A stretch of DNA of 64,000 nt. Origin: a virus. Taxonomy: Duplodnaviria; Caudoviricetes. Location of the stretch: IMG/VR virus record IMGVR_UViG_3300042914_002678; one strand, given 5' to 3'. Under the pieces are notes generated by a model. The model was not told the origin of the DNA. It did not search any database and saw only the letters and a list, made by a program, of their open reading frames with translations. The position numbers and the translations under genes were made by a program. Positions 13,954 through 46,122 of the stretch are shown here, piece by piece. Position 1 is the first letter of the stretch. The number at the start of each line of letters is the position of its first letter.

Positions 13954-14765
13954 CTCAATTATTTACTTGCACATCCGATTCTCCTTATGATAGGCACACC
14001 TATGAAGTTGTGCTTAAAAGTGGTAAAAACGTAATTTTTGAGAACTGGGAGGACACTCAGAGGTATTGGTTTGAGCACAGTCAGATTCCTGATTTTTTGG
14101 ATCTTATAATCGTAAAGGACAAAAAGAAAAGTAAAGAAAAAGTAAAGAGTGGTGGATTTGGTCAATAAATAATTTTAATCATAGAGAAACTTATGACTCC
14201 TTTGTTTCTCGTAACAATTTTATCTTGTTCTGATATTGTGTTGATTGCGAATAGATTGGTAAATGTTAGACTATTGACACCAGAACAAAAAATAGAAATT
14301 CTTCGGGAACTTAAAAAAGTAGTTCCTTCCTGTCCTTTGATTATTAAACCAAATGGAACAAAATGAATCACAAACTGATAAATGGGATCGAGGTCTAACT
14401 CTTTTTGAGGAGAGTGTATTAAAACCTGATCCAGAACTTCGTCAGTGTGCTCACAATCAAAAGTGTTACAATGAACTCATGGCAGTGCGTGAGCATGTGT
14501 TAGAATACCTCAAAACTTTAAGACAATGAGTTCCACTTACATATACTTTGTTATCTTTTTTTGTATTGCTTACTTAATTGTTACCGATCAATCCATAGCG
14601 AGGGCATTTTATATGCTGACTCAACTTGCTCAAGTACAATATGAAAAAACAAAGTGGTGGATAATTCACTCACCAGATAATATCATAGTTAAATGGTTGA
14701 TTTACAGAAAATCTATGAAGATGGCGAAAGAACTGATGGGAGAATTGGAAAAGAAGAATAAATAA
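13950..14765 (+). CDS. Run of small hypothetical ORFs (13950-14168, 14193-14366, 14526-14765 and others)
   Basis: ORF track plus hand translation; tightly coupled starts and stops; ATAAATA at 14165-14171. Confidence 0.55.
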
Positions 14766-14768
14766 TAA

Positions 14769-14820
14769 TGCTTTTATGTGTGGTAACTAAAAGCAAAAGG
14801 GGGGATCCCCCCCCTTTTTT
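14769..14820 (+). ncRNA. Candidate antisense sRNA A (hairpin plus terminator) upstream of a GIY-YIG gene
   Basis: ATAAATA 14758-14764; stem TGCTTTTA/TAAAAGCA; G/C terminator hairpin followed by T6; 14772-14786 is complementary to leader 14845-14859. Confidence 0.5.
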
Positions 14821-14833
14821 ACTGCGTAATTCG

Positions 14834-14841
14834 TATAAATA
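14834..14841 (+). promoter_or_regulatory. T4-type late promoter TATAAATA
   Basis: Exact T4 late consensus upstream of ATG 14866. Confidence 0.75.
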
Positions 14842-14865
14842 GTATTACCACACATAAAAAGCAGT

Positions 14866-15480
14866 ATGAATACTCTACGCATATACACTTATCGTATATC
14901 CTTTGAGGAAGTGCCGTATTATTATTATGGGGTCCATAAAGAAAAAAATTTTAACGAAGAGTATTATGGGTCTCCTGTAACCAACAGATGGTGCTGGGAA
15001 ACTTATACTCCAAAGAAACAGATATTAGAATATTTTGTTGATTGGGAAGAAGCGCAAAGAGTAGAAGCAAGAATAATAAAAGAGTTTTATAATAAAGATA
15101 AGTGGTGTCTAAATGAAAATTGTGCTGGGTATATATCCTTACAGAAAAGAAGTGAGGCAGGAAAAGTTGGAGGTAAAAGGGGGTCGGCAAAATGTAAAGA
15201 AATGGGAATCGGAATATTTGGGATGTCCTCAGAAAAAAGAACTGAAACTGCTAAAAAATCTGTTAAACAGGCAAAGAAAAATAAAACTGGTATATTTGCT
15301 CTAACAAAAGAGCAATTAGTTGAGAATGGAAAAAAAGGTGGTATAATATCTTCTAAAAAGTTAAACTCTCAAAAGTGGATGTGTTTGGAAACTGGTATGG
15401 TATCTACCATAGGTCCTCTTACAAGGTATCAAAAAGTGAGGGGTATTGATACTTCTAAAAAAGTAAAAATAAATAACTAA
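14866..15480 (+). CDS. Free-standing GIY-YIG (Seg-like) homing endonuclease
   Basis: N-terminal IYTYRI...YYYYG...YYGS...E..R.E...I...LNEN catalytic-domain pattern and a basic GK/GGK-repeat C-terminus. Paralogous to 21198-21863. Confidence 0.7.
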   Translation: MNTLRIYTYRISFEEVPYYYYGVHKEKNFNEEYYGSPVTNRWCWETYTPKKQILEYFVDWEEAQRVEARIIKEFYNKDKWCLNENCAGYISLQKRSEAGKVGGKRGSAKCKEMGIGIFGMSSEKRTETAKKSVKQAKKNKTGIFALTKEQLVENGKKGGIISSKKLNSQKWMCLETGMVSTIGPLTRYQKVRGIDTSKKVKINN

Positions 15481-21087: not shown

Positions 21088-21102
21088 TAGAATAAATAGA
21101 AG

Positions 21103-21160
21103 TGTCTGTTTGGACGGCAATCTCTACAGACAAAAGATTAGGTGCTTTCGGGCACCTTTT
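21103..21160 (+). ncRNA. Candidate antisense sRNA B upstream of a GIY-YIG gene
   Basis: ATAAATA 21092-21098; stem TGTCTGT/ACAGACA; terminator GGTGC-TTTCGG-GCACC-TTTT; TTTGGACGGCA is complementary to leader TGCCGTCCAAA 21177-21187. Confidence 0.5.
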
Positions 21161-21164
21161 CTAT

Positions 21165-21172
21165 TATAAATA
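21165..21172 (+). promoter_or_regulatory. T4-type late promoter TATAAATA
   Basis: Exact consensus upstream of ATG 21198. Confidence 0.75.
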
Positions 21173-21197
21173 ATAATGCCGTCCAAATAGAATAGAA

Positions 21198-21863
21198 ATG
21201 ACTAAAAATAGTCCTAGAATTTACACATATAAGGTTACCTTTGAAGAAGTTCCTTATTACTATTATGGTAGTAAAAAAGAAAGGTATTTTGATGAAGAGT
21301 ATTGGGGTTCTCCCGTAGCAAACAAATGGTGTTGGGGACTTTATACTCCAAAGAAACAGATATTGGAATATTTTGAGTTTAGTGATGAAGGATATATCAA
21401 AGCACAAGAAGTTGAAGGGAGATTAATTAACCCAGTATATAATACCGATAAATGGTGCTTAAATGAAAGTTGCTTGGGAGTTTTTTCTTTAGAGCAAAAA
21501 AGTAAAGCAGGAAAAAAAGCATATGAACTTAAATTAGGGGTTCATTCAAGAAGTAAAGACCAAATGAGTAAAGATGGTAAAAAAGGTGGAAACAGCAATA
21601 GAGAAAATAAAACTGGAATTTGTGGAAGAAGTTTGGAAGAAATGATTGAACACGGCAGAATAACTGGTTATAAAAAGAAAGAATTAAATATCGGTGTTTG
21701 TGGTTTATCAAAAGAACAGAGAATTGAAAATTCTAAAATAACTAATTCTCAAAGATGGAAATGTTGTATAAGTGGTTATGTATCTACTGCTTCTGGTGTA
21801 GTTCAGCATCAAAAAGGAAAAGGAATAGATACATCAAAAAGTAATAGACGCAGAATAGCATAG
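21198..21863 (+). CDS. Free-standing GIY-YIG (Seg-like) homing endonuclease, paralogue of 14866-15480
   Basis: RIYTYKVTFEEVPYYYYG...YWGSP...TPKKQILEYF...DKWCLNE is nearly identical in pattern to the 14866 gene. Confidence 0.7.
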   Translation: MTKNSPRIYTYKVTFEEVPYYYYGSKKERYFDEEYWGSPVANKWCWGLYTPKKQILEYFEFSDEGYIKAQEVEGRLINPVYNTDKWCLNESCLGVFSLEQKSKAGKKAYELKLGVHSRSKDQMSKDGKKGGNSNRENKTGICGRSLEEMIEHGRITGYKKKELNIGVCGLSKEQRIENSKITNSQRWKCCISGYVSTASGVVQHQKGKGIDTSKSNRRRIA

Positions 21864-35419: not shown

Positions 35420-35543
35420 GACTTTTATTCTTGGAGTTGGAGTTGGTGTTCTCATCACAGTGGGATTTGCACTTCTATCTGTTGCATCCGATGCTGATGA
35501 TGTGATTGGCAAAGATGACGAAAACTACTACAATAAATAATAA

Positions 35544-35598
35544 TGCCTGCGTTGGGTGCAATCTTCACAGGTAGAGGAGGGGCAGAGATGCTCCTTTT
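35544..35598 (+). ncRNA. Candidate antisense sRNA C upstream of a GIY-YIG gene
   Basis: ATAAATA 35533-35539; stem TGCCTG/CAGGTA; terminator AGGGGCA-GAGA-TGCTCCT-TTT; GTTGGGTGCAAT is complementary to leader ATTGCACCCAAC 35613-35624. Confidence 0.5.
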
Positions 35599-35602
35599 CT
35601 TG

Positions 35603-35610
35603 TATAAATA
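35603..35610 (+). promoter_or_regulatory. T4-type late promoter TATAAATA
   Basis: Exact consensus upstream of ATG 35636. Confidence 0.75.
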
Positions 35611-35635
35611 CTATTGCACCCAACAAAGAGCAGTT

Positions 35636-36337
35636 ATGACTAACAAAGGCAAAATTTATTGTGCCCATTGTATTTTTACTGGAAAGAAATACATAGGACA
35701 AACAAAACAAAAATTACTTTGCGATAGAATAGCAACTCATTTTGCAGATGCTAATAAAAATCATAGTAATGGTAAGTTTCAAAGAGCACTAAAAAAATAT
35801 GGAAGAAGTGGATTTATATGGGGAGTAATTGAAGAGTGTGATTTTGATACGTTAAATGATAAAGAAATCTATTGGATTGCAGAATACAAAACTGTAGAAA
35901 AGGGATATAATCTGTCTCCTGGTGGTGGGCAACCTCCAGAATATTTTTCTAAAGAATATTTGGTAGAAGAACCAAGTGGCAATAGAAAAGAAATTAAGAA
36001 TCTTTCGCAATATTCTAGGGAAAATAACTTAAATGCCGCACATATGCACGAAACACTTTATGGTAAAAGGTTGCACCATAAAGGATATAAACTTATACCA
36101 AGAACTGATGTAGAAATTGAAAGATATGAAAATGAAAGAAGTATAAGAGAGGATACTAGTAGAAAAGGAGCGCCTGGAGAAAAAAATGGTAGAGCGATAC
36201 TTGATTGGGACAAAGTTAATGAAATAAGAAAATTACATAATACCAAGAAATATAAAAATCAAGAAATATCAAATATGTTTGGAATTAAAAAAGTAACATT
36301 AGAAAAAATAGTCTCCAATAAACTGTGGACAGTTTAG
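35636..36337 (+). CDS. GIY-YIG homing endonuclease; true start probably ATG 35636, not 35543
   Basis: KIYCAHCIFTGKKYIGQT...DRIATH...EIYWI...GYN motifs. The late promoter lies inside the longer ORF-track version. Confidence 0.85.
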   Translation: MTNKGKIYCAHCIFTGKKYIGQTKQKLLCDRIATHFADANKNHSNGKFQRALKKYGRSGFIWGVIEECDFDTLNDKEIYWIAEYKTVEKGYNLSPGGGQPPEYFSKEYLVEEPSGNRKEIKNLSQYSRENNLNAAHMHETLYGKRLHHKGYKLIPRTDVEIERYENERSIREDTSRKGAPGEKNGRAILDWDKVNEIRKLHNTKKYKNQEISNMFGIKKVTLEKIVSNKLWTV

Positions 36338-36377
36338 AAACCGAACACTTGACTTTTGCCCATAAAACTTTTATGAT
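36327..36377 (+). promoter_or_regulatory. Early promoter with degenerate palindromic box
   Basis: GGACAGTTTAGAAACCGAACAC; TTGACT 36349-36354, 17 nt, TATGAT 36372-36377. Confidence 0.7.
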
Positions 36378-36392
36378 GTATCTGTTAAACAA

Positions 36393-37969
36393 ATGAGGTT
36401 AATGGCACAAAAGTTTCTCTATATCTTGGACTATTTCGTTCCACAGTTTCAATCGGAATATGGTGGATTGCTCAACGTAATCGCAGAAAATGATGAAGAA
36501 TGTTTTGATGTTGTTGTTGAATGGGATAATGAAACCTGGACAGAATACTACAGCAAACTACGAGAAAACATTGTAAAAGCACAACGCTTTCCTCTTCTTG
36601 AAAACGAAGAATCCCGAGTTGTTGAATCTTTTACCACCTGATGATTGAAACTTCAATAAATCGTCTTGAGTTTAACTTAAAACAGCAGTATCAAGAACGT
36701 ATTACTCATCTTCAGCAAAAGATTACGGAGCAACAACATGAAATCTTGCGACTCCAAGAGCAAATCAAATACATGTCAAAAGACAGATTTTACGATTGCT
36801 GAGTTTCCGCATCATCCGCCCGAAGGTTATAGTTATGAGTTTGAAGAGTTCAAGCGTGGTGTGGTCGCTGTTTGGTTGCGTTGCCATCGTAAGTTTGACT
36901 ACAATAATGGTGCCACAACTCGTACCATTTGGGGATTCTATAAATCCAAAACCAGAGAATACTTCGCCCCAGTCAATAGTAAGACCATCGGTGCTTGTGT
37001 AAATATCAAGGACACGCGGAACTATACCGCGATGCCGATTAAACTTTCACCACTAGAACTTGCATTTGTATGACCTACGAACCACAAGTCAATGATTATG
37101 TAAAATGGACAAAAGGAGTTGAGGGTTGGGTTTACTTTAAGGATAAAGAATACATTACCATTGAGTATAGTGTTCGTCCTAAAGATGAAGTCAACCTTGA
37201 GTGCTGCCCTATCCATAAGAATGAGAGATTACTTGTGATTTGTTATAATGAGCAATGGAAAGAGTTGGAGTACATTACGTCACGAAAATCAATCTATGAA
37301 GAAACAGAAAAATGCTTGGCGATTGCTTGCTAAAGCACTGGGAGAAAAAGCAAGTAAATGTGATAAAGAGGCGGATAGGGTTGCACTTATCCGCCTTGTG
37401 ATGTTTCTGTCTATTCTTATTACCAACTGTTTCATTGTTGCTAATGCTATCAGGCATTGGAATGATAAAACAGAAATCTATTTGATTATTGATGAGAATT
37501 ATGTGCCAAATAGTGGAGTATTAAAGTTAGGATCGTCTAAAGTGTCACTATAATGTAAGCACAGAATCTATGGACTGCTACGACGACATCCAAATTGAAG
37601 AATTGCAAAACTTTGATTTCGTTGGAGAAGATTTGATTGATTTGATTGAAGAAAACAACGATTTCAACATCAAAGATTACATCAACGGCAACTACGATTA
37701 CTGAGTGACAGTTTCCAAACTGTCCACTAAATCACCCACACACCTCTTTAATCCTTTATTATTCTCAAATGACTGAACACATCCCTAACGTGCTGTCTCA
37801 CATTCAAGAACTGAAAGAAACCTGGCGTCGTCAAGATTTCACGTTCACTAAACAGCAACAAGAAGAATACGATCTCTTGCTTGCTACTCGCCGCGAACGT
37901 GTTAAGCAATTCTATGCTGAGGGTCGCGTCTTTAAGGGTTCCTATAAAGCAAAGGAAGAGGACATCTAA
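36393..37969 (+). CDS. Run of small hypothetical ORFs
   Basis: ORF track (36393, 36738, 37070, 37248 with likely start about 37284, 37769). Confidence 0.55.
37707..37727 (+). promoter_or_regulatory. Perfect palindromic box GACAGTT-TCC-AAACTGTC
   Basis: Most symmetric copy of the upstream early-promoter box; precedes ORF 37769. Confidence 0.65.
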
Positions 37970-43879: not shown

Positions 43880-46122
43880 TGTATCTTCAAACCCAAATCT
43901 TTTCCTTAATGGCTGACTACCAACAAGAAATTAAAGACCTAACAGTAACACGTTCCCTGCGTCTGCTGCGTGATGGTTTCAAGAGTGATTTTGCGACCTT
44001 TGCTTATGCTGATGAGAGAATGAACACTCTTTTGCAACAACTAGCAGCAGAGTTTGTTGATGCCAACATTCCGATTGTTGATGAGGATGTTGAGGTTGAC
44101 TTGGCACTGATGCTGATGGAATCTGTTGACATTATTGCACGATGACTTACTCCAACCTCTCAAAGATTCGTCCTAAATTGAGGACACAAGGCAACATCAC
44201 TGGTAACTTTGGACGTGCTAAATCTAAGGCAGGTTCTCCACTCAATGACATTGGTGGTGATGGTAACATAGGAGCAACACAAGATGAATACCTAAACCGT
44301 CTTTATTATGCTTTTGATAACACTACCGAACCTAAACTTCGTCAGTTCATTTATCAGGAAATCCGTAAAATCCACATCCAAAGAGGCACCTGGTAATGCA
44401 AATCCTCTTGAATTAAAGTTAGGATCGTCCAAAGTGTCCTAGTAGTATGAGCAACACTAACATCGTTTCCGAAATCTACTCCTACCACACGAATTGGAAG
44501 GAAGGTAAAGTCAACCAGATGTGGATTGAGCAGTCTGGTGATGAATACAAAGGTTATTCCTATGTCGCTGTTGCACACAATCCCCGCAATGGTAAGACGA
44601 TGGAAATGTCCAACCCTCGCACATCTTACCAGGAAACTCTAAACTGGGTTCGTGGTTGGTGTGGAACTTTCTGTGTTCTTCCTGCCTGATTGATTATGAC
44701 TATCCTAGCAACTGACATTCTCCTGCTACTCAACAAAGTACAGCAACTTGGTGCCACTTATAACATCAATCAGAATGATGATGGGTTTATTGTAGAAATC
44801 CGTTATAACTGGTGGGATGATAATGAATGGTATTCCAATAAACTTTTCATCACAAATGAGAGTGAATCTACTTGGCAAGAAGGTGATTATGAGTTTAGCA
44901 ACATGATGACTATTCTTGATGAGAAACTAGAAGAGCAAAGGCAAAAAGAAGAAAAGGCACAAAAGCGTAAAGAACTCATCAATTCTCTCACACCTGAACA
45001 GCGCGAACTTCTAGGAGTTTAAGTAATGAAAAACTATCGCGTTCGAGTTGAAACCTATGATGGATGTGTGACCATTTGGTATGAGAAATCCAAGGCAAAG
45101 ACTGCGGACAAACTTATACTCAATCGCGTCTACAATCAACTCTGTGGTCTAAACATCAAAGAAATCTCTGTTAATCCTTCTGTATGAAATACGTTGTTGA
45201 ACTCTACATTGGTGGCAAAGTCTTCAAGGAAGAAGTGTATGCTACCAACCCAAAAGATGCGCGTGAAACTGCCATTGCTCGCAATCCTACCGCAAAAGTT
45301 GTTGGTGTCAACGTAAGTTTCAAGTAATTAAAGTTAGGATCGTCGAAAGTGTCCTAGTAGTATGAGCAAAACATTCACCGTCCGTTTCGTATCCGATGCC
45401 CTGGATTCTCCAGAATACATTGGACCTTTCTACTCTGAAGATGAGGCACAAGATTATGCTGATGATCGCAACAGTTCTTTAGCATTATCTGGTATTCCTT
45501 CCTCTGTTGCTTGTTACTCTGTTGTTGACTGATTATGAGAACTCTTACACTCCAAGTCACCGAAGTTACATTTGATTTTGATGACGAAGATTTCACCGTA
45601 GAAGAACAACAATCGGTCATCAATTCTGTTGTTGGTAATGTCTTTGAGGTTGAAGTTGATGATGACGATGATGATGAAGCAATCGCAGATGTGTTAGTTG
45701 AAGAGGTGACAGATTACACTGGTTGGTGTGTTTTTTCCCTTGATTTTGTCCACGTTCTGAATACTCATTGAAATGAGAATTGCTCTTTTGATTGCTACTC
45801 TTGCACTCGGTCTTAAAGTAGGTTTAGCAGCACATGCTACCGTGAATGTGTATCAAGAACAGCAAGCAGAAAAGTTCTGCCAAATTGACCCTAACTATTG
45901 CAACGCAAAATGACTCTTTCCTCTGACCAACTTTCCAAACTTGTTCAACTTTATGCTGAGCGAGTTGTTGATAGCATGGATGTGCGCGATTTGTGTGCAT
46001 TTGCCATTGATACAATTTGTGACAACATGCACGACTATAATGAGTCTGAATTGATGGAAGAATTGTCACACTATTATGAAGAAGATGAACTCAACGAACT
46101 GGTTGAATCTGTAAAGGATTAA
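43849..46122 (+). CDS. Run of small hypothetical ORFs within repeat-bounded modules
   Basis: ORF track plus hand-read 45184-45327 and 45362-45532. Confidence 0.55.

Follow-up and report, generated by a model that had tools for sequence, protein, structure and literature searches.

What does the short array of signals in front of the GIY-YIG endonuclease gene C do, is the same layout carried by nuclease genes of other lineages, and where does the gene itself begin? These questions were addressed in a stretch of viral DNA of 64,000 nucleotides (IMG/VR record IMGVR_UViG_3300042914_002678; hereafter the window), which has a G+C content of 37%. The gp6 baseplate protein encoded in the window was 76% identical to those of Synechococcus phages Bellamy and S-SM2, and nearly all the DNA runs containing the window sequence came from lake water; the source is a freshwater T4-like cyanomyovirus sampled in lake-water metagenomes. 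A megablast search with the region of gene C gave no match among isolate phages. The elements located in and upstream of gene C, with the evidence for each, were the following:

35533 to 35539, plus strand: box 1, an outer late-promoter-like motif ATAAATA, read from the sequence
35544 to 35573, plus strand: P1 hairpin, stem TGCCTG (35544-35549) with CAGGTA (35568-35573), from folding and stem covariation
35551 to 35562, plus strand: anti-leader arm GTTGGGTGCAAT in the P1 loop, the 5' arm of a long-range helix, from the complement and covariation
35573 to 35601, plus strand: intrinsic terminator hairpin, 35573-35584 with 35589-35600, GAGA loop at 35585-35588 and T-run, from folding and covariation
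35603 to 35610, plus strand: box 2, an inner T4-type late promoter TATAAATA, one of three copies in the window
35613 to 35624, plus strand: leader arm ATTGCACCCAAC, the 3' arm of the long-range helix, from the perfect complement, shuffles and covariation
35626 to 35630, plus strand: Shine-Dalgarno-like AAGAG, 1 nt past the helix, from the sequence and the long-form minimum-free-energy fold
35636 to 36337, plus strand: gene C, GIY-YIG homing endonuclease of 233 aa, from Pfam, phrog_7168, the I-TevI alignment and a comparison of homologue starts

Direct reading of the sequence found, at these positions, all the leader elements that the first-pass annotation had named for gene C, as well as the heptamer GCAATCT that it had noticed in the loops of both B and C, the former being one of two sister leaders described below. 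The stop codon of the upstream ORF (35538-35540) overlaps the final two bases of box 1. The segment 35613-35624 is a perfect 12-nt complement of 35551-35562, a length that was reached in 0/2000 shuffles of the downstream segment. RNA spanning 35525-35660 folded as a long-range 12-bp helix around the terminator (-42.9 kcal/mol, z = -5.1), with no equally stable structure in 200 shuffles, and in the long-form fold AAGAG (35626-35630) was found in an internal loop closed by the pairing of CUGC (35547-35550) with GCAG (35631-35634). A G+C-rich stem, a short loop and a U-run, the features of an intrinsic terminator, were all observed at 35573-35601. This hairpin was not listed by a simple consensus terminator scan, probably because the scan extends the stem into the T-run; despite the scan, its reality is supported by folding and covariation. 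The late transcript of gene C presumably starts near 35616, a position that follows from the T4 spacing rule, in which the TATA box lies about one helical turn upstream of the transcript start (PMC2988020). When the leader was compared with the Rfam covariance models, no family was recovered, the sole hit being a snoRNA at chance level (E 0.58). Candidate sigma-70-like promoters reading into P1 (TTGGCA-17-TACAAT at 35506-35534, and TTGACA-17-TAAATA in some relatives) were rejected, given that they occurred at the rate seen in shuffled sequences.

The protein encoded by gene C matched the Pfam GIY-YIG domain (PF01541) with 24.3 bits (cut-off 22.6) and the PHROG family phrog_7168, "homing endonuclease", with an E value of 5e-22. 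Its residues 6-94 aligned with the catalytic domain of I-TevI (1LN0/1MK0, E 5.7e-05), and in this alignment the KIY, YIG and GYN motifs were kept, an Arg was present in the segment equivalent to RHF, and a catalytic-site Glu occupied the position at which the 1MK0 variant has Ala. By these matches the product is a GIY-YIG enzyme resembling I-TevI, for which site-specific cleavage is predicted. Proteins A and B were 46% identical to each other, and BLASTP gave no significant similarity between protein C and either of them, in agreement with the earlier view that gene C is not a close paralogue of A or B. The same annotation had judged the ORF-track start at 35543 to be probably wrong, and the homologues bear this out: the frame is open from 35543 in the window copy alone, close homologues have in-frame stops as near as three codons 5' of the conserved ATG, and none of them has a start equivalent to 35543. 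The homologue comparison further revealed that the region 5' of the ATG evolves through RNA covariation and not as codons. The start codon of gene C, as read from this comparison, is 35636, and not 35543.

The motif TATAAATA was found three times in the 64 kb, which is no more than expected by chance; all three copies were located 32-33 nt 5' of an endonuclease ATG (A, 14866; B, 21198; C, 35636). Two sister leaders were thereby added to that of gene C, both of them backed by the sequence, folding and a covariance model:

14756 to 14868, plus strand: sister leader of nuclease gene A
21090 to 21200, plus strand: sister leader of nuclease gene B

The order of the parts was identical in leaders A, B and C, and the arm sequences were different. 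In the fold of each leader, the terminator and box 2 were surrounded by a long-range helix (z = -5.1 to -6.2), and RNAs beginning 6 nt past box 2, the presumed late leaders of A, B and C, were unstructured in folding. Within the window, the covariance model described below matched these three leaders and nothing else. Six other boxes of the form [A/C]TAAATA were present 23-38 nt 5' of non-nuclease ORFs of the window, three of which were checked (a tail-fibre-like gene, its downstream neighbour and the gene immediately 5' of gp6), and the leader module was found at none of the six. The pattern had been considered doubtful in case it proved equally common 5' of non-nuclease late genes, and these six boxes without a leader speak against that. 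Since [A/C]TAAATA boxes also stand before non-nuclease ORFs, the short motif itself is probably a general late promoter of the window phage; in marine cyanomyoviruses this part is played by NATAAATA (PMC2984593).

A search with protein C recovered 49 viral contigs, three of which carried distant homologues without the cassette and were set aside, leaving 46 loci. The full leader was present in 45/46 of these related metagenomic loci, all of them retrieved by protein homology alone; in the remaining locus the gene copy is decayed and its box 1 mutated. Box 1 ([A/C]TAAATA) was present in 45 of the 46 loci, and in as many it was fixed 5-6 nt from P1. Both boxes are followed by the context n-T-A-w-T-R-C, in which the structural roles of the bases differ between the two boxes. 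With the neighbouring genes in the C loci and two isolate genomes added, about 46 distinct leaders were available in total. MAFFT alone left many of them out of register; therefore, a covariance model was built from 12 well-aligned leaders and the rest were re-aligned to it (37 hits, 32 distinct). An alignment-free test is given as well, because a model-based alignment leans towards structure: this search yielded contiguous Watson-Crick complements of 9-15 nt (p <= 0.001 for most unique leaders), and the 3' arm began 2-5 nt past box 2 in all copies (2 nt in C).

In the model-based alignment, 91.8% of the cells were paired, as opposed to 64.8% in shuffles and 32-51% when the partner was slid, and 181 compensatory cells were observed versus 51 +/- 8 expected. 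Among the 32 distinct leaders, 10/12 pairs of the long-range helix changed on both sides, as did 6/8 modelled pairs of the terminator (94.7% of cells paired). G-U pairs were present in the helix and the minus-strand model scores were much lower, indicating that the leader acts as a sense-strand RNA. The strongly conserved pairs started at the fifth nucleotide past box 2, so that nearly all of them are within the presumed late mRNA. P1 was represented by several covarying stem types at the same position (among them CCTG/CAGG, CTCTA/TAGAG, CTTAA/TTAAG and CTTTTA/TAAAAG); its statistics were modest, with a mean stem of 6.2 bp versus 4.9 bp in shuffles in a position-anchored test. The short form folded as P1 plus terminator in most of the 29 copies folded.

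The cassette was restricted to nuclease genes in the isolate genomes in which the model found it, with six matches in the complete genome of Synechococcus phage S-SRM01 and three in phage B3, all of them before GIY-YIG or HNH nuclease genes. The layout had been proposed to be shared across nuclease lineages, and its distribution turned out to be wider than that proposal: at least six families of cargo were recorded, namely C-like GIY-YIG, A/B-like (phrog_314), the "YYTYAYL" GIY-YIG/NUMOD3 type, the "YYSYEE" NUMOD type, an HNH type (phrog_655) and an EndoVII/HNH type. In lake contigs, homology to other copies started exactly at box 1, and a near-identical leader C was joined precisely at, or just before, the ATG to different nuclease families. 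Homology edges at box 1 and foreign cargo at the ATG therefore define the leader as an exchangeable module, and a leader C with foreign cargo is, as far as the joined sequences tell, the outcome of recombination between leader and cargo exactly at the start codon. The portability of the module across nuclease lineages is thus confirmed and extended. Among the marine reference phages, the model found no cassette in Syn9, S-PM2, P-SSM2 or S-SM2, and none in Bellamy, where the single weak match was just a terminator.

Some individual loci are described here separately. Junctions of leader C with other cargo were located at window positions 35627 and 35638 (runs X25 and X1), the cargo being of the MSKGK... 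and "RFYTYA" types. At L072:1504-2178 a full cassette precedes a 190-aa protein without a Pfam or PHROG match, which represents either an unrecognised nuclease family or the sole non-nuclease cargo seen. Locus L073 (contig IMGVR_UViG_3300049043_000066, about 44436-44539, minus strand) is a half-cassette composed of box 1, P1 and terminator, with no box 2, leader arm or nuclease gene, and represents either the remains of a lost gene or a terminator put to new use. Decayed nuclease genes of 5-92 aa with largely intact leaders were found at L033 and L046, both on one 66-kb contig; at L046, box 1 was mutated to TAATATA beside a 63-aa nuclease remnant.

Nuclease-less alleles with near-identical flanks, in which a unit of about 890 bp is missing, were detected in three loci (L083, L084 and L088), the first of them 98% identical in the downstream gene. 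These alleles match the window up to about 35509 and then again from the ATG at 36402, and 35453-36400 is missing from a DNA contig of a related strain; accordingly, the mobile unit spans about 35510-36400. C-type genes always had the same downstream gene 3' of them, and presence/absence polymorphism at a fixed site, the criterion of mobility, was found for gene C. Box 1 is absent from the nuclease-less alleles and is therefore part of the insert, in which the upstream ORF is slightly extended, followed by the leader, gene C and an early promoter that, with its ribosome site, replaces the native one:

36349 to 36377, plus strand: replacement sigma-70-type early promoter TTGACT-17-TATGAT, conserved behind C-type genes

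The insert rewrites the final residues of the upstream 41-aa ORF (window 35506-36402 versus L083:100-200). The junction at about 35509 falls within the downstream gene's early promoter, in its -35 hexamer (TTGACA to TTGGCA). Since the insert starts in this hexamer and stops at the ATG of that gene, its native early-promoter region is the probable homing site of nuclease C. In the downstream ORF listed at 36393-36641, it is the second ATG, 36402 (MAQKF...), with GAGG before it, that opens the gene in the homologues and in the empty allele; the mechanical start at 36393 is probably wrong and the true start 36402. Behind gene A, an ATAAATA at 15469-15475 was observed within the last codons of the nuclease gene, 30 nt 5' of the next ORF (15500), and, by analogy with the T4 seg and mob genes, it probably serves the displaced downstream gene as a late promoter.

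The reading that we favour, and hold to be reasonably probable, is that the leader of about 105 nt is a portable expression gate of free-standing homing-endonuclease genes in freshwater T4-like cyanophages. RNA entering from upstream, whether from early-gene traffic or from box 1, would mostly stop at the intrinsic terminator, which would insulate the nuclease gene. Read-through RNA would fold the long-range helix of 12-20 bp (35551-35562 with 35613-35624 in C) as a back-up mask, and because this helix abuts or includes the ribosome-binding region, translation of the nuclease would be poor. In the late phase of infection, the phage late polymerase would start about 6 nt past the inner TATAAATA, inside the 3' arm, so that the late leader of about 20 nt would have no 5' arm and would be unstructured and translated. 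The promoter at the 3' end of the unit would restore the expression of the downstream host gene. In this scheme we infer both transcription starts, the efficiency of termination and the effect on translation.

The predicted mean unpaired probability at positions -14 to +3 was 0.38 in the long form versus 0.57 in the late form, and for copy C the predicted gain in accessibility was modest, from 0.57 to 0.72. The helix of A, of B and of several relatives extends into the purine-rich region that lies 5-6 nt 5' of the ATG; in copy C it ends 1 nt 5' of AAGAG, adjoining and not covering it. Further points weigh against the cis mask: with a terminator in its loop, both read-through and the masking that depends on it become a minor pathway, and the strictly conserved box 1 and P1 are left without a role. 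None of the RNA runs contained the C stretch, and no small RNA or 5' end was seen there. In metatranscriptome X25 (share 0.04), a 198-nt contig covers 35558-35627 and then continues into a different nuclease gene; it represents another copy of the leader and may be DNA carry-over, and contigs of this kind cannot show starts or ends.

The two elements left without a role by the cis mask would find one if box 1 were a working promoter. Its transcript, about 58 nt long, would then consist of two hairpins (P1 and the terminator), display the anti-leader in the loop of the first and act as a tandem small-RNA control: the RNA would pair in trans with the first 10 nt or so of the late nuclease mRNA and either throttle or stabilise it, in addition to the cis mask or in its place, as the two can coexist. 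Box 1 is indeed part of the insert and keeps its fixed spacing from P1 in 45/46 loci, the T-A-w-T-R-C context is common to both boxes although its bases differ in structural role between them, P1 covaries, and the fold of the short form consists of P1 and the terminator, the P1 loop holding the arm. The location of nearly all the strongly conserved pairs inside the presumed late mRNA (from the fifth nucleotide past box 2) fits as well, and the cognate intermolecular duplexes reached -20.8 to -25.7 kcal/mol, with a cofold gain of -12.6 to -15.7. These features, however, also fit a folding pathway of the cis helix or a duplication of promoter modules, and shuffled targets sometimes matched the cognate duplex energies. 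Moreover, the P1 statistics are modest (6.2 bp versus 4.9 bp in shuffles), a 12-bp helix is impossible in a closed loop of 17 nt unless P1 opens, and the RNA of about 58 nt is predicted only, with none observed. We therefore regard the small RNA as a tentative proposal, possible and somewhat doubtful.

The long-range helix could instead be a processing site for a double-strand-specific enzyme of the RNase III type, which would cut read-through RNA and so separate the upstream and nuclease messages, considering that a conserved duplex of 12-20 bp surrounds a terminator at the junction of two transcription units. Many copies, however, have only 10-13 contiguous pairs, short for the enzyme, no conserved internal-loop or cleavage signature was seen in the helix, and the constant start of the 3' arm directly past the late promoter would be left unexplained, which makes processing very improbable. 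Even less credit can be given to a role of the inverted repeat as DNA, in nuclease recognition or as a recombination site: its elements do lie at the edge of a mobile insert, but the arms are wholly different among copies of one nuclease family and common to different families, the tolerated G-U pairs would be mismatches in DNA, and the orientation relative to the gene is strict.

Homing endonucleases need to be expressed without harm to the carrier phage, and, on the reading of the leader as an expression gate, unrelated nuclease genes of freshwater cyanophages would have one exchangeable RNA leader as their common solution, combining terminator insulation, masking by a long-range helix, timed release by an inner late promoter and restoration of the host transcription unit through a promoter at the 3' end. 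A richly covarying RNA structure without an Rfam family would also help with the annotation of cyanophage metagenomes, both for start codons and for mobile nuclease genes. If the outer box does make a small RNA, it would be a new kind of portable RNA regulator, in which each homing-endonuclease gene carries a cognate small RNA in tandem on the same strand; such a toxin/antitoxin-like RNA brake would move with the selfish gene while its arms diversify, leaving each copy in a genome with its own matched pair. S-SRM01, with six copies, is an isolate in which the small-RNA proposal can be tested directly.

The core logic of the leader is an established T4 mechanism and was already known (PMC2988022, PMC3014915). 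A late promoter lies inside an inhibitory helix in T4 I-TevI, I-TevII, I-TevIII and segB, in Aeh1 mobE and in the T4 genes e, soc and 49; transcripts initiated upstream hide the ribosome site in the helix, and the inner late promoter gives an open mRNA (PMC2988022, PMC3014915). As proposed here, early read-through of e, soc and 49 is masked, and leaders are open when transcription begins at the late promoters, which lie in the 5' strand of the structure; the three are, however, ordinary phage genes with local hairpins, which contain no nested terminator and are not portable (PMC3014915).

The closest description in metagenomic material is that of Dassa et al. (2009), in whose report the 5' UTRs of GIY-YIG and Vsr-like endonuclease genes contain hairpins, ten of which include TATAAATA together with complementary motifs; the genes belong to "fractured gene" loci from the ocean and Lake Gatun metagenomes (PMC2677866). 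Those loci, like the present ones, are cyanophage-like and metagenomic. The word "terminator" is absent from the main text of that paper, whose passages on the hairpins describe no outer box and no P1 (PMC2677866), the comparison with the present cassette being one of descriptions and not of sequences. In the main text of the S-SRM01 genome paper, the words "late promoter", "terminator" and "hairpin" are likewise absent. A T4-like cyanophage in which a non-coding RNA goes with a homing-endonuclease gene, as the hypothetical one would here, is S-PM2, whose CfrI is an antisense RNA of about 225 nt described as linking psbA and the F-CphI endonuclease gene (Millard et al. 2010, via PMC2984593). 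CfrI is given there as a true antisense RNA from the opposite strand, whereas any small RNA of the present leader would be in tandem on the same strand.

The T4 seg and mob genes contain embedded promoters for downstream genes (PMC2988022), and in a similar way the inserted nuclease units of the window would supply the promoter of the displaced gene (36349-36377 behind C, ATAAATA at 15469-15475 in A); unlike in T4, the replacement promoter of C is placed just past the stop codon and not in the coding region. The comparison is closest with the endonuclease genes of the T-even phages (PMC2988022), which are also selfish nucleases with a TATAAATA late promoter within a helix that forms only on upstream-initiated RNA and involves the ribosome-binding region, the late transcripts having no 5' arm. 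Copy C has its Shine-Dalgarno-like sequence adjacent to the helix and not inside it, and in this resembles the unusual seg43(25) hairpin of Aeromonas phage 25 (PMC2988022). In contrast to the T-even genes (PMC2988022), the present helix is long-range and encloses a complete intrinsic terminator, its 5' arm is placed in the loop of a conserved hairpin of its own (P1), a second conserved promoter-like box precedes the module, and the whole is one homologous cassette found with at least six nuclease families.
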